Origin: Bacteroidetes bacterium CG2_30_33_31
GTDB taxonomy: Bacteria; Bacteroidota; Bacteroidia; Bacteroidales; UBA1556
Direction of reading: 5' to 3'
Assembly (NCBI GenBank): GCA_001872625.1
Contig: MNXP01000008.1
Span: 38,269-102,268, forward strand
DNA length: 64,000 nt
How positions within the stretch are numbered: position 1 is the stretch's first letter; each line of letters begins with the position of its first letter. The notes below the pieces were generated by a model. The model was not told the DNA's origin and searched no databases. It saw only the letters and a program-made list of their open reading frames with translations. The position numbers and the translations under genes are program-made. Below are positions 35,495 through 43,312 of this stretch, piece by piece.

Positions 35495-38400
35495 TTATTG
35501 ATTAATAAAATCTAAGGGAACTACTTTGGCATCTTTAAAACCAGATTTTATTATCCTTTTCATTAGTTTGTTGGCAGTGGATTTTTTATCTAATGTTTCA
35601 GTAAAATAAATATATCCCCCTTGAACTCCAATAACACAATTTATAGTTGCAATGTCATTTATTGCTTTAAAAGTAGCGGCAGTCTCCCTCGAACCTTCGC
35701 CTTCAAAAATCTTTACTACCCATTTACTTGAGTCATTTTTGATATTTGAAATAGGTATATATGCTGTATCAATAATTTCTCTATCGGCTATATTTGCACT
35801 CGTATCTTCAGTAGTTATTTGTTTATTTTGAGTTGACCTCTGAATTGGCATTACAGGTTTATTTGTATTGCTAATTCTCATTGTTCTTTCTTTTTCTACA
35901 AGGTAAAAACTTACGTTATAATTTTCAAAATCTTTGGTTACATTCAGAGGAATATTATTTTGTAAAAATTCAAATCTACTGCCAATGGCGGCATCATTTA
36001 TAATTATTTGATAATTTCCATTTGGAGCAAAAAGCACAAAAAGTCCATCCTTGTCGGTAAGTGTGCTAAAGGTTTTACCATTATCCACATTCATTGCCGT
36101 TACTCTAATATTTCCAAGAAATACAGATTTATTGTCGGTATATTTTGCCCTTTCCATAAGAATACCACCACTTATACGAGCACCTTTGCTAAGAGGAATA
36201 TAAATGGTTTTATTTTTATCAATAGTTCTATAAAATGTCTTTCCATCAAACCAGCCGCCCATCGTAGTAAGTGGTTTGGCTGTAATTACGTAATCTCCCA
36301 TTGGCAAATTATCATATTCAACCATGCCTTTGGAATTGGTAACCAATTCATAAACTTTCACTGGAGCATTAAAATCTTCTGAACTTTCTGGAGTGTTTGT
36401 TATTGTGTCATTTTTACAAAGCATTATTAACATTTCAGTGATGCCCTTTTCATTTGGATCTTGAACTCCATTACCATTTAAATCTCTGAAAGCTATTACA
36501 TTTACTTTATAAAAACGCTTTAATCCAGTTGGCATATTGACATTAAATTTTATTCCTGCGCCAAATTCAAACCTATTGGAAGTTGATTCTGGTACAATTT
36601 CTTCGGTATAAGTATTAGATTCGGCATGATATTGATTTCTTGTATAAGCGCCTTCACCATAAAACATATAACGAGCATATAAGCTAAATCTGAAACCGTT
36701 TGGAGCATAATAAAAAAGCTCTGGCCTTGTAATAAACTGATTTCTATCGTGTATTGTGGTATAAAAATGATTAATGTTAAAATTTATTTTCATTTTATTA
36801 TCCAAAAACCAATAATCGTAAAATAAGGTTGTATAAATCTTTTGTGGATTTATTTTTGTTCTAATATAGTCAACTTGCTCTATGGTATAATATGGGCCAT
36901 AATAGTATCTTGTGTTAAATTGAAATCTTTTATACCTCAATGATGATTGAACATAAGTTACAAATATATCCTTCGACCCAGCTACTCTTTGAAATTTTGT
37001 ATATCCTGCAAAAGCAGTGGTGTAAAATTTGAAAGACGTTTTTGATAATCGTCTGTATTCGAAAGCCATCCCAGCAGTACTCGATTCAATCGGATTTGAA
37101 TTAACAGTATAATATGTAGGCTGAAAAATAAACACATTTTGCTCTTTTTGATAGCTTAATTTCAGACTGTAATTGTCTTGAATATTGTATAAACTATCGT
37201 TTGTAAGTCTTCCAAAAGTATAAATATTAGGATTGAAATTGAAGCGATAGCCCGATGCCGAAAGAGTATATTGTTGGTTAATTCTATATCGTGCACTTGA
37301 TGATATTGAAAAAGTTCCACGAAGGGGACTATAATCCTTAGATCCGTAATATGAATTGGCTGTAAAACTCAGCTTCTTGAAATTGCCTGAATATCCTATT
37401 TTCCAGCCATAGCCAGTTAACTTTTTCTCGGCACCTGTTACCCAATTTAAGTTTTCCAAACTATAACCGCCACCAAATCTAATCATCTGATTTCTTGCGA
37501 CTTGATAATTCCAATCACTCGTGCCAAAATCGCCTACTACTTTATTCCAGTCATTATTTATATGTTGATAATAGTTATCGATATATAATTTTTTTCCTTT
37601 AAATGTGTGATATCCGCCAAAACCTTCTGCATAGTAATTATCAAAAAGTTTAGGTTTTCTTATGAACAATCCTCCTATAATATTAGAGCCAACATTTACT
37701 GATGCTTTAATACCTTTGCCATTAAGAGTGCTTCCTGGTCTATTAGACCCGATATCTCCTAATTCAAAAGCAAATCTTTTATGTGTGTAATTTAAGAAAA
37801 CATAATTTCCTAAATATGATTTTAAATCAATTTCATTTTTTACAAAATCTGCCTGATAATAGTATGTAAGAATGCTATTATTTGTGAATGTTTTGCTCCC
37901 AAAAATATTCAAAGATGAATAAGTGGTTTGCGAAAGCATATCGTAAGTATTTAGTTCAACTGTCATTGGGACAGACTCCACAGAGGCGTCCATGATTTTA
38001 GTGGAATTAGGAAGTTTTAAAAAATCAATATTTCCTGTCCATAATTTCGTTGTTCCACGGTCTGCAACACGCTCATTAGTAACTTTAATTTTAAGACGAT
38101 ATACTTTCGAATTTTCATTTTCATTAGAAATATTAGCGTTACTTTCTGGCAAAAATTCTTCGGTCTTATTTCTTAATGCAAGCCTAATTGTAGTATCTTT
38201 CCCTACTTTTAGAAATACTGAAAATTCATTCAAATTACTCGATTGAGTTTGTAAATTTACAAGCTCAATTTCTTTTTCGGGAAATAAGCTTACTTGCAAT
38301 GCTTCATCAGAATTGCCATTGTTGCTCAATCTTATTTCAAAATATGCAGTATCATTATTTCTACTGAAATATATTTTATTTTCGGGGGTGTAAACATTCC

Positions 38401-38830
38401 ATTGCGATAATTTGTTCACCTCAATGTACCAAATAGCATTTGTAATTGTAAAACTTTCGGAAGAAAGAAAAGCATTGACAACATAATTTGTATTCCCTTT
38501 AACATCAGAATAAGGTCTAACTCTAACAGGATAAAATGCTGAATCTTTGGCTTTAATGGTTATCTTTTGGCCTTCTTCTCCAAAAATTTTCCATGCTGCT
38601 GGAGGAGTTATTTGCAACATCAGCTCCATATCTTTGTTGGTATTATTTATAATACGCAATACATTGGTAGCTAATTCATTGCTTTTTATTTTAGACCTAT
38701 CAATTGCAAAATTCATATTAATACCGTAGGCATTCACATTTAAAGTTTTGCCATCTTGCGAAAAACCCTGAAGAAAGCAAGTAATTATTATAGCAAGTGT
38801 AAGCCAATATTTTTTTGAATTTGCTATCAT
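35495..38830 (-). CDS. 1111-aa secreted multidomain protein: two Ig-like domains, ~480-aa beta-barrel-like region, Cna-B/SdrD-B-like and CarboxypepD_reg-like domains, C-terminal SPOR-like domain. Candidate pore or platform of the pilin-like operon
   Basis: Signal peptide ...CFLQGFSQ. aa 27-280 contain patterns such as NVLRIINNTNKDMELMLQITPPAAWKI and YFEIRLSNNGNSDEALQVSL. aa ~290-775 are Tyr/Gly/Asn-rich with alternating amphipathic strands (KLSFTANSYYG, YTLSASGYRFNFN, FRFSLYARYMFYG, RFEFGAGIKFNV). FRDLNGNGVQDPNEKGI...GDYVITAKP is Cna-B/SdrD-B-like. NIRVTAMNVDNGKTFSTLTDKDGLFVLFAPNGNYQIII is CarboxypepD_reg-like. The end, KWVVKIFEGEGSRETAATFKAIN....GGYIYFTETLDKKSTANKLMKRIIKSGFKDAKVV, is SPOR-like. 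Confidence 0.75.
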   Translation of the reverse strand: MIANSKKYWLTLAIIITCFLQGFSQDGKTLNVNAYGINMNFAIDRSKIKSNELATNVLRIINNTNKDMELMLQITPPAAWKIFGEEGQKITIKAKDSAFYPVRVRPYSDVKGNTNYVVNAFLSSESFTITNAIWYIEVNKLSQWNVYTPENKIYFSRNNDTAYFEIRLSNNGNSDEALQVSLFPEKEIELVNLQTQSSNLNEFSVFLKVGKDTTIRLALRNKTEEFLPESNANISNENENSKVYRLKIKVTNERVADRGTTKLWTGNIDFLKLPNSTKIMDASVESVPMTVELNTYDMLSQTTYSSLNIFGSKTFTNNSILTYYYQADFVKNEIDLKSYLGNYVFLNYTHKRFAFELGDIGSNRPGSTLNGKGIKASVNVGSNIIGGLFIRKPKLFDNYYAEGFGGYHTFKGKKLYIDNYYQHINNDWNKVVGDFGTSDWNYQVARNQMIRFGGGYSLENLNWVTGAEKKLTGYGWKIGYSGNFKKLSFTANSYYGSKDYSPLRGTFSISSSARYRINQQYTLSASGYRFNFNPNIYTFGRLTNDSLYNIQDNYSLKLSYQKEQNVFIFQPTYYTVNSNPIESSTAGMAFEYRRLSKTSFKFYTTAFAGYTKFQRVAGSKDIFVTYVQSSLRYKRFQFNTRYYYGPYYTIEQVDYIRTKINPQKIYTTLFYDYWFLDNKMKINFNINHFYTTIHDRNQFITRPELFYYAPNGFRFSLYARYMFYGEGAYTRNQYHAESNTYTEEIVPESTSNRFEFGAGIKFNVNMPTGLKRFYKVNVIAFRDLNGNGVQDPNEKGITEMLIMLCKNDTITNTPESSEDFNAPVKVYELVTNSKGMVEYDNLPMGDYVITAKPLTTMGGWFDGKTFYRTIDKNKTIYIPLSKGARISGGILMERAKYTDNKSVFLGNIRVTAMNVDNGKTFSTLTDKDGLFVLFAPNGNYQIIINDAAIGSRFEFLQNNIPLNVTKDFENYNVSFYLVEKERTMRISNTNKPVMPIQRSTQNKQITTEDTSANIADREIIDTAYIPISNIKNDSSKWVVKIFEGEGSRETAATFKAINDIATINCVIGVQGGYIYFTETLDKKSTANKLMKRIIKSGFKDAKVVPLDFINQ

Positions 38831-38847
38831 GCTTTCTTTTAATTCTT

Positions 38848-39432
38848 TTATAAATCTTGAATGAGAATATAATCAATCCGTAAACTGTATAATCCCGATT
38901 TATATGTAAAACCTGGATTAATTTTTAAATCTACATTGAATTTATAACAGCCTGGGCTGCTAAGGTAATTGCCAGCAGTATTTGTGCCGTTATTGGGACA
39001 GCTTACACTTAAATCGGGAGCTGCAGCACTACCTATTAAATATGTGGGAGTTGCTATGTCGGTAATGGGGGAAAAGCCTGAAACTAATGATGTATTATTG
39101 GCGTTGCGCACTTGCATTTGAAGAATGCTTACTGGTGGCAAAACTCCAGAGGTTGAATATGTAGATGTTACATCTAAATATCCAGTGGAAGTAGTTGTTG
39201 CACCAACGTATAAATCCCATTGGCTTCCTGTTACATCTACCAACAATTCAAAAGCATTATATTTTATAATACCTGTGCGATAATTCTCTATTGTGTTAAA
39301 ATCAAATGAAATAGTCGATGATAAAGAAGTTATTCCAAATTCTACAGTTTGAGCAGAAACTTTTGAAGTTCCTATCATTGAAAATAGAAATATGTTAAGA
39401 CTTATTAATATAGTTAAGAAGAAATATTTCAT
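38848..39432 (-). CDS. Secreted 194-aa beta-rich protein, paralogue of the 226-aa protein; candidate minor fibre subunit
   Basis: Type I signal peptide ...TSKVSAQ. Shares ISFDFNTIENYRTGIIKYNAFELLVDVTGSQWDLYVGA, YKFNVDLKINPG and the C-terminal SGLYSLRIDYILIQDL with its neighbour. Has one Cys pair (SCPNN...GCY). The stop is 17 nt before the start of the 1111-aa gene. Confidence 0.78.
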   Translation of the reverse strand: MKYFFLTILISLNIFLFSMIGTSKVSAQTVEFGITSLSSTISFDFNTIENYRTGIIKYNAFELLVDVTGSQWDLYVGATTTSTGYLDVTSTYSTSGVLPPVSILQMQVRNANNTSLVSGFSPITDIATPTYLIGSAAAPDLSVSCPNNGTNTAGNYLSSPGCYKFNVDLKINPGFTYKSGLYSLRIDYILIQDL

Positions 39433-39469
39433 TTAATTTATTGAACTTTATATAAAAAAAACCTTCGAA

Positions 39470-39511
39470 CAAAAAAAATGAGAGAATGATAAAAATATCA
39501 TCCTCTCATTT
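39470..39511 (-). terminator. Intra-operon Rho-independent terminator or attenuator between the two subunit genes
   Basis: The minus-strand RNA is AAAUGAGAGGAUGAUA-UUUU-UAUCAUUCUCUCAUUU (16-bp stem, one G-U pair) followed by U8. It starts 8 nt after the stop of the 226-aa gene. Confidence 0.75.
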
Positions 39512-39518
39512 AAATTTT

Positions 39519-40199
39519 TTATAAATCTTCTACCAAAGAATAAACAACTTCTAAATAGTAGTAACCAGCTTGAGCATAAGCCTCATTGTTACCATTTGCA
39601 GTCAACAAAACTGTTGAATTAGGAAATGTAGCAGGAATGCTTGGCTTCAATCTCATATCAATTCTAAATTTATGAGTTGTTGGGTTATCAGCAGCTGTTC
39701 CAGGAGCAAATGCAGATCCACCACCTGAAATTGTACCAAATTGACCTGCTAAAAATTGTGTAGCTGCGGTAGGAACACCAGCTGCTACTGTTGAGTTTGT
39801 TAAACCCAATAAAGAGGTGAAACTGTTAATGTTTACAGGAGCTGTAGAAGTAACTGATGATTCAATTTCAAGAACTTCAGCTGGTAAATAAGAATTCCCA
39901 TTTGTTGAATATGCTTCAACTTGAGACCATGAGTCGCTGTTGGCATATACAAAAAGGTCCCATGCAAGTGTTGCGTCAACTTCAAGTTTGGTTGCATTAA
40001 AACGTGTTATACCTTGACGGTACTCTTGAATAGTTTTAAATACAAAATCAACTTGTGGGTTGGTTGTCATTGTAAGATTTAAAATCCCACGGAGATCCAT
40101 AGTTACATAATTGTATTCCTGATCGGATAATTGTGCGTAACTTTTTTGAGAAGTTGCGATGATAGCAACCAATGCAAATAAAAAGACTAACTTTTTCAT
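39519..40199 (-). CDS. Secreted 226-aa beta-rich protein; candidate major fibre subunit
   Basis: Type I signal peptide ...SQKSYAQ. VDFVFKTIQEYRQGITRFNATKLEVDATLAWDLFVYA, HKFRIDMRLKPS, C-terminal AGYYYLEVVYSLVEDL. No lipobox, no T9SS CTD, no Cys. Confidence 0.78.
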   Translation of the reverse strand: MKKLVFLFALVAIIATSQKSYAQLSDQEYNYVTMDLRGILNLTMTTNPQVDFVFKTIQEYRQGITRFNATKLEVDATLAWDLFVYANSDSWSQVEAYSTNGNSYLPAEVLEIESSVTSTAPVNINSFTSLLGLTNSTVAAGVPTAATQFLAGQFGTISGGGSAFAPGTAADNPTTHKFRIDMRLKPSIPATFPNSTVLLTANGNNEAYAQAGYYYLEVVYSLVEDL

Positions 40200-40218
40200 T
40201 TTAAACTACTTTTAGGTT

Positions 40219-40250
40219 AATAAATAATAAATAATAAATAATAAATAAAT
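40219..40250. repeat. Heptanucleotide tandem repeat (AATAAAT) x4.5 in the 5' leader of the 226-aa subunit gene
   Basis: aataaat aataaat aataaat aataaat aaat, read directly. It lies between a near-consensus -7 box (CAAATTTG, 40255-40262) and the ATG at 40199. Confidence 0.8.
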
Positions 40251-40449
40251 ATTTCAAATTTGGTTATCTGTGGTTTTCCCTTCCCTCAGATAGTTTGTCA
40301 ATGGTGTTTATTACGTGAAGTAGATTTTATGGTTACAAATTATTTATTTTCTTTTTATAACTAATCTATCAAAGCTGGTTAAATAATACGAATTCAGATA
40401 CATAAATATCTATTATTTATTAAAAAAATATTAAAAGCTGTATTTTTTT

Positions 40450-40490
40450 GGAATAAAACAAAGCCGACTTATGTTAAATAAATCGGCTTT
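40450..40490 (-). terminator. Possible terminator of the sulfur operon
   Basis: 8-bp stem AAAGCCGA/UCGGCUUU with a 15-nt loop, followed by GUUUUAUU on the minus strand, 23 nt after the stop at 40513. The large loop makes it weak. Confidence 0.35.
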
Positions 40491-40512
40491 ATCAAAAGAC
40501 TTCGCTTAATTT

Positions 40513-41016
40513 CTAAGTGAAAATTATTTGTGTCCTGTCGCCATCGGCTAATTCATAAAATTGGCCAATTGTAATAATGTCTTTAACTTCATCGCTCAAA
40601 TCTTCCTTTTTCAATTTGAACATGTCCACGGCCAATTTACAGGCAAAAATTTCTCCACCGCCAGCCGTAATCATTTCTAAAAATTCTGAAACACTTGGTA
40701 TGTCAAGCTTTCCCATCTGAGAGCGCATCATTGCCGAAACACCAGATTCTACACCAGGGATTGTTCCCAACAATGTTGGAAAAGGCAAACCTCCCGGCAT
40801 ACGCATGGCGGGATTGCCAACAACACCTGTATGCAGATGATTCATGAACTTTTTGGTGATTCCATCGAGGCCAAAAAAGGTAAAGAAAACTTTTGTTTCT
40901 ATACCTTCCATCACAGCTCCATTTGCCATAACTAAAGTAGCATACACGTCTTCAATTGTTCCTTTTGCGCAGATAAGACATACTTTCTGTAAAGGTTTTT
41001 TTTCTGTATCTTTCAT
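40513..41016 (-). CDS. DsrE/DsrF-like (DrsE_2 type) sulfur-relay family protein
   Basis: Start trimmed to the ATG at 41016 (MKDTEKKPLQKVCLICAKGTIEDVYATLVMANGAVMEG...FFTFFGLD...). The track start at 41076 would overlap the upstream gene by 25 nt. Confidence 0.78.
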   Translation of the reverse strand: MKDTEKKPLQKVCLICAKGTIEDVYATLVMANGAVMEGIETKVFFTFFGLDGITKKFMNHLHTGVVGNPAMRMPGGLPFPTLLGTIPGVESGVSAMMRSQMGKLDIPSVSEFLEMITAGGGEIFACKLAVDMFKLKKEDLSDEVKDIITIGQFYELADGDRTQIIFT

Positions 41017-41051
41017 ATTATATTTATTAAGCTTTTTATAAAAATTATCTA

Positions 41052-41363
41052 TTACACACAACTTGTAGGCTTGCAAATACCAGCATACTTCGAAGAAAGT
41101 TTGAGTGGACCTCCTGGGAACAGTCTGTATAATCCTTTAATATCTACAACTCCTGAGTTTCCTACTTTGCGTATTGATAGAGCTTCTCCACTATTATATT
41201 TATCGCGCAAGTATTCCAAAACTTTGAAATGCTCTTCGGTGAGTTCAATGTCGTCGCGCTCTGCTAATAATTTTGCAACATCTTTCGTCCATTGACTGGC
41301 ATCTACCAAATAGCCGTCGTCATTAAGTTTTACTACTTGTCCGTTTATTGTTAAATCTTCCAT
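41052..41363 (-). CDS. TusE/DsrC-family sulfur-carrier protein
   Basis: 103 aa. GYLVDASQWTKDVA..LAE...IELTEEHFKVLEYLRDKY and the diagnostic C-terminal arm ...KPTSCV with a penultimate Cys. Confidence 0.85.
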   Translation of the reverse strand: MEDLTINGQVVKLNDDGYLVDASQWTKDVAKLLAERDDIELTEEHFKVLEYLRDKYNSGEALSIRKVGNSGVVDIKGLYRLFPGGPLKLSSKYAGICKPTSCV

Positions 41364-41384
41364 AATAATTTGTTTTAAAATTTG

Positions 41385-42059
41385 TTATTTATTTATTGAG
41401 TTTCTAGAAATATTTTTCATAAATGTAATTAAGAATCCTAAGCCCTTTTTCACTTCAGGGCTGTTCATCTCTCTAAAAGCTTTCCATAATGAATATTCAG
41501 GAATATTATCCACTTGCAAAGATGAGTATATTTTCACCGCATTATTCACTGAATTCATCATGTCGGGTTGGGTAATTTGTTTTACTGTATTTAAAATCGT
41601 AACAACATTATCAGCTAATAATTTTACGTCTTTTGGTTCAAAACCAGTAATTACATTGTCGATAACATTGGCGAATTCTCTAAGGAATTCGAAGTAACCT
41701 TTTTTGTCAAATTCGCCCAATTTTTTGCTAATGTCAATTATCACCTCATTTGCAATAGGTCCAACATCTTTTGTCAAATCCATTACCGATTCAAGAGTGT
41801 CCATCAGGCTATTAAAATTTTTAATATTTCTTAAAAATTTTATTCCCAGGTCAGTAAGTTCAGCAGGGTTTAAGTCCACCTGACGATTTTCAAGCTCTTC
41901 TACAGTAGAATCATAAACATCTTTTCCAATGATAGAGAAATCTGAAATCAAATCTTCTATTTTCTCGGACTTAAGTTTTTGTTCCTTCACATATTCCAAT
42001 AGCAAATCCATTTTGCTGTTGAGCTCGTTTATTTGTTTTTGTATATCAACTTCATTCAT
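41385..42059 (-). CDS. DUF1641 domain-containing protein
   Basis: Helical protein with the C-terminal SLWKAFREMNSPEVKKGLGFLITFMKNIS motif typical of DUF1641. It is paired with an FAD oxidoreductase, as is usual for the family. Confidence 0.75.
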   Translation of the reverse strand: MNEVDIQKQINELNSKMDLLLEYVKEQKLKSEKIEDLISDFSIIGKDVYDSTVEELENRQVDLNPAELTDLGIKFLRNIKNFNSLMDTLESVMDLTKDVGPIANEVIIDISKKLGEFDKKGYFEFLREFANVIDNVITGFEPKDVKLLADNVVTILNTVKQITQPDMMNSVNNAVKIYSSLQVDNIPEYSLWKAFREMNSPEVKKGLGFLITFMKNISRNSINK

Positions 42060-42073
42060 AGCTATAATATCTA

Positions 42074-43312
42074 TTATAAGGTGATATTTTTCTTGCCAGC
42101 CATAGTCATGTCAGCTTCTATTGGCAACTCTTTGCCTTTCAGCAAAATATGCCAATAAATCCATCTAAAAATTACTTTACCATAATGGTTAATTTTCGTG
42201 TTTTTTAATAAACCAAAAGGACCAATTCCAGGTAAAGGGAAAGTTCCAGGCAAAGGCTCCGTTGTATAATTGAAATCTATGAGAGCACCTTTTCCGTAAC
42301 CAGTTTCTATATAACAATTAGCGTGTCCATCGAACTTAGCCATCAATGGTCGGCTTTCCATAGCTGAAATAAGGTTTTCAAATAATATTTCACTTGCAAA
42401 ATGAGCAACAGAACCAGCTTTTGATGTAGGAAGGTTAGCAGCATCACCAATCACAAATATGTTTTCGTATTTTTCCGATTGTAAGGTAAATTTGTTTGTT
42501 GGAACATAATTCATGTCATCACCAAGTCCACTCCTTGCAATCATTTCTGACCCCATATTTACCGGTACAATTGTAAGTAAATCAAATTCAATTTCCCTTT
42601 CATCATAGCTGATAATTTTTTTGTTGTCATTGTCAATTCTTTCTAAATAGAAATCTGGCACAACTTTAATATTTTTTTCTTTCATTAATTCACTCAACAT
42701 TTTTGTAGCTACAGGCTTGGTAAATGCGCCTGCCATTGGCGTTACGAAAGTGATATCAACTTTATCTCGCATACCTTTTTTGCTGAAAAAAGCTTCAGCT
42801 AAGAACACAAATTCTAATGGAGCAACAGGGCATTTATATGGCACCTCTGATATACACAATACTAATTTTCCTCCTTCCCAATCTTTGAAATATTGTTGAA
42901 GTGCTAAAGCTCCTTCTATAGTATAGAAATCGAAAATATTTTTATACCATAGTTTTCCTATTAGTCCATTGGTAATTTCTGGTCTAGTTTGAGTTCCAGT
43001 AGCTACTATCAGATAATCATAGTTTAAAGTTTTACCTCCATCTAAATATACCTTATTTTTATCAGCTTCAATTCTATCAATTGCTGAAAAAATAACTCGA
43101 ATGCCTGCTGGGAAAAAATTAGATTTTGGCTTAATTACATCTTGTTTATTGTAAATTCCGAAGGGAATAAATAAAAATCCAGGTTGATAATAGTGAGTTT
43201 TAAATTGATCAACAATCGTAATTCTCCACTCCTCTTGGTCAAGAGCATTCTTTAATTTGTTTGCCATCATAGTGCCCGCTGTACCTGCACCTAATATCAA
43301 AAGTTCTTTCAT
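42074..43312 (-). CDS. FAD-dependent pyridine-nucleotide-disulfide oxidoreductase, sulfide:quinone oxidoreductase-like
   Basis: ILGAGTAGT dinucleotide fold, second GD motif FVIGDAAN, and the two SQR-type redox Cys contexts PYKCPVAPLE and GHANCYIETGYG. Confidence 0.8.
   Translation of the reverse strand: MKELLILGAGTAGTMMANKLKNALDQEEWRITIVDQFKTHYYQPGFLFIPFGIYNKQDVIKPKSNFFPAGIRVIFSAIDRIEADKNKVYLDGGKTLNYDYLIVATGTQTRPEITNGLIGKLWYKNIFDFYTIEGALALQQYFKDWEGGKLVLCISEVPYKCPVAPLEFVFLAEAFFSKKGMRDKVDITFVTPMAGAFTKPVATKMLSELMKEKNIKVVPDFYLERIDNDNKKIISYDEREIEFDLLTIVPVNMGSEMIARSGLGDDMNYVPTNKFTLQSEKYENIFVIGDAANLPTSKAGSVAHFASEILFENLISAMESRPLMAKFDGHANCYIETGYGKGALIDFNYTTEPLPGTFPLPGIGPFGLLKNTKINHYGKVIFRWIYWHILLKGKELPIEADMTMAGKKNITL

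Follow-up and report, generated by a model that had tools for sequence, protein, structure and literature searches.

A compact gene module of Bacteroidota that probably builds TLP-1-type surface fibres by a chaperone-usher-like route

We analysed a stretch of 64,000 nucleotides (64 kb) from the genome of Bacteroidetes bacterium CG2_30_33_31 (contig MNXP01000008.1, positions 38,269 to 102,268), referred to here as the window, in which an earlier note made from the letters alone had singled out a three-gene operon as a possible pilus-like assembly system. A check of the open reading frames placed three co-directional genes, called A, B and C below, exactly where that note had put them, on the minus strand with A upstream, followed by B and then C. 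The intergenic gaps are 86 nt between A and B and, in agreement with the note, 17 nt between B and C. The genes are listed with window coordinates:

39519-40199, minus strand: gene A, 226 aa, putative major fibre subunit of the TLP-1 family
38848-39432, minus strand: gene B, 194 aa, putative minor subunit and paralogue of A
35495-38830, minus strand: gene C, 1111 aa, predicted usher-like outer-membrane protein

On sequence evidence, the product of gene A is a homologue of the subunit of the TLP-1 fibre. In a phmmer search A matched PDB chains 9ikk_A and 9ikj_A with E=1.9e-11 and 2.7e-11, each entry holding 16 chains, and a profile built from 29 diverse members of the A family matched 9IKK and 9IKJ with E=3.8e-57 and 1.3e-56 over residues 2-236 of the 237-residue TLP-1 chain. 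The window's A is 29% identical to TLP-1b, and closer relatives of TLP-1 (37-41% identical) were represented among the fetched sequences by protein P0182 and the A gene of locus L004; A thus belongs to a sister subfamily within the TLP-1 family. This family is rare, with 146 representatives at E<=1e-3 in a search of 1.84 billion cluster representatives. An AlphaFold2 (AF2) model of A, made from a shallow alignment (65-92% identity), reached a predicted local distance difference test score (pLDDT) of 49.7 and was not used to judge the subunit groove. Even with this weak model, the only significant Foldseek matches in the PDB were 9ikj and 9ikk (E=3e-5 and 6e-5, template modelling score (TM-score) 0.45).

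TLP-1a and TLP-1b (PDB 9IKJ/9IKK) were the first CryoSeek structures, determined in 2024 at 3.2-3.5 Å from filtered pond water (PMC11494351). TLP-1 is an 8-nm homopolymeric helical tube with a 15-Å lumen, held together by donor-strand exchange in which the N-terminal strand β1 of protomer n+4 completes the immunoglobulin (Ig)-like fold of protomer n (PMC11494351). Its sequence was read from the density map, with the AlphaFold model of a Flavobacteriales protein that lacks annotation as a guide; no match turned up in the metagenome or the mass spectra of that study, whose authors reported that the source species and identity remain unknown and described no assembly genes (PMC11494351). In the literature we found TLP-1a/b mentioned only in the CryoSeek series, and no paper describing the A-B-C cluster. 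The earlier description of the fibre as undescribed therefore holds for its genes, hosts and machinery, but a related fibre had been solved in 2024.

The features of A that bear on this homology are the following:

40134-40199, minus strand: A signal peptide, residues 1-22, of signal peptidase I (SPase-I) type, ending SYA/Q with the predicted cut before Q23 (read from sequence)
40080-40133, minus strand: A predicted donor-strand region, residues 23-40 (conservation and alignment to the TLP-1 N-terminus)
39954-39962, minus strand: A invariant W80-D-L82 (family alignment)
39522-39569, minus strand: A putative C-terminal groove strand, residues 211-226 (conservation)

The predicted mature N-terminus of A coincides with the first modelled residues of TLP-1, and the TLP-1 chain aligns from its start with A residues 27-44. 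Conservation is highest in the donor region (mean top-residue frequency 0.65) and in the C-terminal strand (0.63), compared to 0.33-0.39 in the exposed middle; in both subfamilies, no other part of A is conserved as well as the donor-strand region. We infer that residues ~23-40 of A (QLSDQEYNYVTMDLRGIL) form β1, the donated strand, the residue range being our own since the TLP-1 paper places β1 only as N-terminal. The motifs quoted in the earlier note (F.F..I..Y..G, W-D-L and a C-terminal G.Y.L strand) are real in that they are conserved columns of both the A and the B families.

Searches of Pfam and NCBIfam with A and B matched no family and returned only noise (FlxB reductase at E=0.13, IcmM at E=0.057). 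The models for spore-coat-U (PF05229), DUF4402 (PF14352) and WxL had no matches at E<=10 in A, B or 61 family members (32+29), so that the suggested kinship with spore-coat-U/DUF4402 pilins has to be abandoned in favour of TLP-1. In addition, the FimA/Mfa Pfam families did not match A or B, both signal peptides end in A/Q with no lipobox Cys nearby, and no type IX secretion system (T9SS) sorting domain (PF18962 or TIGR04183-type) was found in A, B or C, the same Pfam model having readily matched an unrelated neighbour gene of locus L034. The note's view of A and B as carrying type I signal peptides without a lipobox or T9SS C-terminal domain, and as fitting neither the type V (FimA/Mfa) pili nor the T9SS adhesins, is thus borne out. 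A Gln at position +1 is conserved in A, in B, in C (Q25) and in the family of a fourth gene, D, which is described below; such a residue is typical of exported Bacteroidota proteins.

The W-x-L motif raises the alternative that A and B are non-polymerising wall or surface proteins of a WxL-like kind with a WxLIP-like partner, that C is their anchor or a porin, and that fibres are made only in the TLP-1 subfamily. Such a role could be accommodated by the low identity between A and TLP-1b and by the W-x-L that is invariant in A and B, and it gains from members of the D family that match WxLIP_PGBD and from the prediction that WxLIP inserts a strand into WxL (PMC10599100). In UniRef an A homologue carries the label 'WxL domain-containing', which we could not reproduce with Pfam models. 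We nevertheless regard this alternative as improbable, given that the profile match to TLP-1 runs over the whole chain, that the donor-strand region is so well conserved in both subfamilies, that no member of the A or B family matches the WxL Pfam model even at E<=10, and that the attenuator layout described below implies a high-copy structural subunit.

Gene B encodes a second protein of the same kind, with these features:

Residues 1-27 of B, minus strand: signal peptide of SPase-I type, ending VSA/Q, predicted mature start Q28 (read from sequence)
38998-39000, minus strand: B conserved Cys145 (B family alignment)
38947-38949, minus strand: B conserved Cys162 (B family alignment)

That the 226-aa and 194-aa products are paralogues, as the note had it, was confirmed by BLASTP (E=4e-13, 27% identity) and by a profile-profile comparison of the A and B families with hhalign (99.9% probability, E=5.9e-33). 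The invariant W-x-L is shared by both proteins. The hhalign alignment begins at A41/B31, whereas mature B begins at Q28, and B therefore lacks an equivalent of A residues 23-40, which are the residues aligned to the donor strand. A direct comparison of B with 9ikj gave a weak match (E=0.03), and a match to the fimbrial subunit AafA was not significant (E=0.21). The 194-aa start of B is supported by an N-terminal hydrophobic region in all 32 aligned B homologues. One public gene call (L062:9453-9983) starts B at an internal Met, which gives a product of 176 aa and removes the signal peptide.

Natural B-A fusions of ~420-457 aa were found in proteins P0180, P0188 and P0192 and in about 12 other representatives, and one is encoded at L060:304-1665, where the only contig fetched is 1.8 kb long. 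In P0180 a B-like domain comes first (residues 57-224, E=7e-13 with the B profile), and ~4 residues further on a full mature A-like domain (residues 229-453, E=3.9e-47) begins at its donor strand. The order B then A is the layout of engineered donor-strand-complemented chaperone-usher pilins. These fusions lend independent support to a strand interaction in which A donates to B.

To judge from the family alignments, B would have the same fold as A, with a groove and without a donor strand, and the one place in a chain that is open to a subunit of this kind is the acceptor end. B is therefore most likely the first subunit, initiating or capping the fibre in the position of FimH/PapG. A B protein without donor strand is consistent with chaperone-usher-like assembly and equally with extracellular nucleation of the kind known from curli and TasA, in which C would be only a pore, B would be held at the surface as the nucleator, and A would add distally without usher-style catalysis or a chaperone. 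For such a nucleator, an open groove without a strand suits a cell-proximal position as well as it suits a tip; on the other hand, we see no hint of a means by which B would be held on the cell.

The third protein, C, was modelled with AF2 from a 43-sequence alignment (mean pLDDT 83). Its predicted layout is as follows:

38759-38830, minus strand: C signal peptide, residues 1-24 (sequence)
38417-38722, minus strand: C N-terminal domain 1 (NTD1), Ig-like β-sandwich, residues 37-138 (AF2 model)
38015-38401, minus strand: C N-terminal domain 2 (NTD2), Ig-like β-sandwich, residues 144-272 (AF2 model)
36536-37981, minus strand: C β-barrel, ~residues 284-765, one long run of β-hairpins with roughly 24-28 strands (AF2 model)
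36152-36535, minus strand: C C-terminal domain 1 (CTD1), transthyretin-like β-sandwich, residues 766-893 (AF2 model)
35894-36106, minus strand: C C-terminal domain 2 (CTD2), β-sandwich, residues 909-979 (AF2 model)
Residues 984-1020 of C, minus strand: disordered linker (AF2 model)
35501-35722, minus strand: C SPOR-like α/β domain, residues 1037-1110 (AF2 model)

The β-sandwich domains gave weak Pfam matches to SdrD_B and CarboxypepD_reg, and C also has a weak match to FixG_C. The last domain is predicted with a strand-helix-strand-strand-helix-strand (E-H-E-E-H-E) pattern at pLDDT 77-92; it has no Pfam match in the window's own C, and the aligned C homologues P0145 and P0163 match SPOR (PF05036) with E=4e-7 and 1e-6. 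SPOR domains bind peptidoglycan, which would place the C-terminal half of C in the periplasm.

Ushers were the best specific matches of the C model in a Foldseek search of the PDB, with E=1e-11 to 1e-9 over ~800 aligned columns. They included FimD (3rfz_E, E=1.2e-11, 829 columns), and PapC (7lhg_C, E=4.7e-11, and 6cd2_C). Hydin, which carries PapD-like ASH domains, ranked alongside them, followed by TonB-dependent receptors, LptD and MtrB at 1e-7 to 1e-6. NTD1 of C is remotely homologous to the first domain of D (94% probability, E=1.2e-7, 65 columns), so that C carries a built-in D-like domain in every clade. The profile of the N-terminal domains of C found only generic Ig/macroglobulin-like matches in the PDB (YfhM, E=0.014), and in Pfam and NCBIfam the usher families PF00577, PF13954 and PF13953 had no match in C.

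On structure alone the usher-like character of C is moderately supported by this model, and with the genomic context added the support for it becomes strong. The higher TM-scores reached by TonB-dependent receptors, LptD and MtrB could also be read to mean that C is a barrel for nutrient uptake or general use, such as a TonB-dependent transporter or an LptD-like protein, with A and B as accessory proteins unrelated to fibres. This we disfavour as very improbable: C has no Pfam TonB_dep_Rec or Plug match, its N-terminus consists of two Ig-like domains and not of a plug, A and B have no lipobox, and dozens of genomes show a strict linkage of C with subunits of the donor-strand-exchange kind and with a PapD-like gene.

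The module is conserved well beyond the window. A scan of one genome per species, covering 185,579 species, found 53 loci, all in Bacteroidota and spread over at least four orders; distant members will be under-sampled, since the scan patterns were drawn from close relatives of A. Carriers include Geofilum, Alkalitalea, Natronoflexus, Carboxylicivirga, Saccharicrinis, Draconibacterium and Prolixibacteraceae among the Marinilabiliales/Bacteroidales, Pedobacter and Paradesertivirga among the Sphingobacteriales, and in addition Chitinophagales and one Flavobacteriaceae metagenome-assembled genome (MAG). In loci with enough flanking sequence, B follows A in 46 of 50, C follows B in 39 of 42 and D follows C in 30 of 36; the spacing between B and C is nearly always 1-20 nt, and the flanking genes are not conserved across loci. 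The A-B-C trio is kept even in metagenome contigs in which identity to the window's C falls to 22-25%. The gene orders found were:

ABCD: 30 loci
ABC: 11 loci
CDA or CDAA: 4 loci
AAABC or AAABCD: 2 loci

Co-occurrence of the three genes across dozens of genomes, together with the TLP-1 homology and the structural matches to ushers, supports the earlier proposal that pilin-like subunits and a barrel protein belong to one assembly system, and overall that reading was largely right. In outline, the makers of TLP-1-type fibres would be Bacteroidota (Marinilabiliales/Bacteroidales, Sphingobacteriales, Chitinophagales and some Flavobacteriales), and the genes behind the orphan TLP-1 structure a compact A-B-C(-D) module.

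Chitinophagales MAGs have the system divided between two loci, C-D-A' and A-B, each with its own A-type gene. The same three MAGs supply both halves, with A-B only at L043, L045 and L051 and C-D-A at L055, L054 and L052. Two further loci (L039:2289-4840 and L048:5196-7472) have three tandem A genes, 61-63% identical to the window's A, before B and C, which suggests antigenic or functional diversification of the major subunit. At L011, a locus with D, A is 81% identical to the window's and C only 36%, and at L007, without D, the values are 90% and 64%. That A is far better conserved than C suggests module shuffling or very unequal evolutionary rates.

Gene D, which lies directly after C in most related loci (for example L015:10808-11635, L011:5227-6114 and L004:2467-3300), encodes a protein of ~270 aa with a signal peptide, two Ig-like domains and no C-terminal transmembrane helix. 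Members of its family gave sub-threshold matches to the PapD-like superfamily, namely to Cep192_D6 in 25 of 32, OCRL-ASH in 18, WxLIP_PGBD in 16, MSP in 15 (best E=6e-6), PapD_N in 9 and PapD_C in 2. The D profile matched the MSP domains of Scs2/VAP and the chaperone FaeE in the PDB, and the Joint Genome Institute (JGI) gives one member the name 'P pilus assembly chaperone PapD'. Against PF06030 D scored 24.6 bits compared to a gathering score of 27.3, yet a precomputed PF06030 match is listed for many members. Domain 1 of D ends, just before domain 2, in an alternating-hydrophobic strand (...TFQFVVHIFQTPP), which to our reading may be similar to the G1 donor strand of PapD. In Alkalitalea saponilacus an IS200-type Y1 transposase gene lies between C and D (L002/L003:12527-12991), an insertion that could affect expression of D.

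Based on these results, we propose that the operon serves to make a surface fibre of TLP-1 type, along a route like that of chaperone-usher pili, with a probability of roughly 0.65. It would be a real fibre system of chaperone-usher-like type, unrecognisable by sequence, of which the genes, hosts and machinery had not been described before. A and B would be exported by Sec, the signal peptide of A being cut before Q23. A would then polymerise by donor-strand exchange, its N-terminal strand (residues ~23-40) filling the incomplete Ig-like fold of a neighbour. B would come first and receive the donor strand of the first A, and the fibre would presumably grow in this direction. C may serve as the outer-membrane platform, with its barrel for export, its Ig-like domains on the periplasmic side to handle subunits, and its SPOR-like domain as a tie to peptidoglycan; this export and assembly role is what the modelled layout suggests. 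In most relatives D would presumably cap subunit grooves ahead of assembly. In the clade without D, a copy of D elsewhere in the genome or the D-like N-terminal domain of C itself might do the capping. A hairpin conserved after A would hold the amount of A above that of B and C. The candidate machinery thus looks like that of chaperone-usher pili, diverged past sequence recognition.

Several observations weigh against this proposal. A is only 29% identical to TLP-1b, and the quaternary structure may therefore differ; the open groove of A and B is putative, with the model of A at a pLDDT of ~50. The TM-scores of C to ushers are low (0.24/0.32), as is expected where domain orientations differ, and the barrel taken by itself is matched no worse by TonB-dependent receptors (TMt 0.42-0.47). 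The secondary-structure string of C shows no evident plug domain, and neither the protein nor its family profile showed sequence similarity to ushers or to any solved structure in the PDB. D is absent from the 64-kb window, which is part of a metagenome contig of about 104 kb and in which neither blastp nor a D-family hidden Markov model (HMM) run on the six-frame translation found it. Finally, an exchange from n+4 to n produces a four-chain tube, for which a single usher threading one chain would be insufficient.

The statement in the earlier note that no PapD or PapC gene is present was correct in that neither search detected one in the window (Pfam models for the three proteins; D HMM, six-frame, 64 kb), but C is usher-like in layout and D is present in most relatives. 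Nor is D present in the flanks of L007, L008, L009, L012 and L034, which are the nearest relatives of the window, and what follows C in this clade is unrelated (M23 peptidase, TerB-like proteins, iPGM and a T9SS cargo protein). The split loci of the Chitinophagales imply that D may lie elsewhere in the window's genome.

The clade without a D gene and the n+4 geometry, which is hard to obtain by threading through one pore (PMC11494351), either favour extracellular nucleation or require a modified usher model, and chaperone-free polymerisation by donor strands appears to have a precedent in archaeal cannulae (10.1101/2024.12.30.630787). Nevertheless, a PapD-like D is tightly linked to C in most lineages, and C has four Ig-like domains around its barrel in usher-like order, with ushers as its best specific structural matches; this domain order and linkage favour the chaperone-usher-like model, and we consider nucleation unlikely. 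A modified usher model is conceivable in which C is a fused chaperone-usher, its PapD-like N-terminal domains capping grooves in cis in the D-less clade so that three genes suffice. In that case the four-chain tube would come from several C pores or from a single pore that attends to four open grooves one after another. We regard this fused form as tentative and less likely than not. Clades with and without D offer a natural experiment on the need for a free chaperone, and the making of a four-chain exchange tube is a structural puzzle raised by these findings. Cultured carriers exist in Alkalitalea, Geofilum, Natronoflexus, Carboxylicivirga, Pedobacter and Paradesertivirga, among them Alkalitalea saponilacus DSM 24412, Geofilum rubicundum JCM 15548, Natronoflexus pectinivorans DSM 24179 and Paradesertivirga mongoliensis KCTC 52859.

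Compared to TLP-1 itself, the window's A has the N-terminal strand, the F.F motif, W-x-L and the C-terminal strand in common. TLP-1 is known only as a pond-water structure, whereas A is known from a gene that stands with genes for a minor subunit and machinery; the geometry of an 8-nm four-chain tube is that of TLP-1, and the window's fibre may differ from it.

The Pap and Fim systems resemble the one proposed for the window in several respects. Their subunits exchange N-terminal donor strands, their outer-membrane protein has an N-terminal domain, a large barrel and two C-terminal β-sandwich domains, their first subunit has no donor strand (B; FimH, PapG), and the gene for the major subunit stands first with a hairpin next. 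Relatives of the window also carry a periplasmic partner with two Ig domains (D). However, the window's cluster has no detectable Pfam homology to Usher, PapC_N/C or PapD (PF00345/PF02753), and in its clade the operon carries no gene for a chaperone. At its N-terminus C has a pair of Ig-like domains, of which one is D-like, and it combines a SPOR-like anchor with the lack of an evident plug. Exchange in Pap and Fim runs from n+1 to n. In TLP-1, the solved member of the family, it runs from n+4 to n (PMC11494351).

Within the Bacteroidota, the donor-strand pili described so far are of type V. These FimA/Mfa1 pili share strand exchange with the proposed fibre, but their pilins are lipoproteins, are processed by a protease and donate a C-terminal strand, whereas A and B carry SPase-I signals and show neither a lipobox nor a FimA/Mfa Pfam match, and the strand predicted for donation by A is N-terminal. 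With the proposed route, pilus assembly of the usher type would reach a phylum that is known for T9SS adhesins and pili of type V. The Pam pili of the Candidate Phyla Radiation are also donor-strand-exchange pili with PapD-like chaperones in the operon (10.64898/2026.03.03.709456), and they include a single-domain pilin without donor strand that is predicted to lie at the tip (10.64898/2026.03.03.709456). They differ in their unrelated pilin families, in their membrane-anchored chaperones and in having no outer-membrane usher-like protein.

A further parallel concerns the WxL/WxLIP (DUF916-DUF3324) clusters of Gram-positive bacteria, which combine a small single-domain protein, a larger one with the same domain at its C-terminus and a partner with two Ig domains. 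Part of the D family matches WxLIP_PGBD (PF06030), and WxLIP is predicted to insert a strand beside the N-terminus of WxL (PMC10599100). In contrast, A and B have no WxL Pfam match, D is without a transmembrane helix, polymerisation is not known for WxL proteins, and Gram-positives have no outer-membrane component. The pairing of A/B with D may be the diderm counterpart of WxL-WxLIP, in which case WxL proteins would also work by strand complementation; we offer this as a lead that draws only on the WxLIP-like domain of D and the W-x-L motif.

The operon is bounded and probably regulated by the following elements:

40457-40493, minus strand: terminator-like hairpin of the upstream DsrE-like gene, 16-bp stem and U-run
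40200-40456, minus strand: A/T-rich leader/promoter region (sequence)
40218-40248, minus strand: perfect tandem heptamer TTTATTA x4.4, 19-49 nt upstream of the A start codon (Tandem Repeats Finder)
39476-39511, minus strand: stem-loop and T-run directly 3' of gene A, 16-bp stem

The stem-loop behind A is stable (folding free energy (dG) -20.4 kcal/mol, z = -5.5), and a comparable hairpin follows gene A in all 47 of 47 non-redundant related loci, with differing sequences. Over the 110 nt past the A stop codon dG is <= -20 kcal/mol in every locus, compared to a shuffled median of -15. In operons of the pap/fim type, an abundant major subunit followed by low-copy assembly genes is the expected layout. 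The hairpin is likely a partial terminator (attenuator), giving an excess of A over B and C. The hairpin at 40457-40493 (dG -18.8 kcal/mol, z = -4.9 vs shuffles) marks the 5' boundary of the operon's own transcription unit.

Within the leader, a sigma-70 promoter scan stayed at background level and pinpointed no promoter, as is expected for Bacteroidota, and Rfam matched no family in the operon or leader. The TTTATTA repeat is specific to the window's lineage, close relatives having a single copy of the motif. As a slipped-strand tract for phase variation it was rejected, since no differences in copy number were seen among the available copies, including an identical JGI contig. Just upstream, on the minus strand at 40513-43312, lie genes for a pyridine-nucleotide disulfide oxidoreductase (412 aa), an HMP-family protein (224 aa), a DsrC-like protein (103 aa) and a DsrE-like protein (about 167-187 aa), a cluster that looks like a small sulfur-handling module and is set off from the pilus operon by the terminator hairpin.

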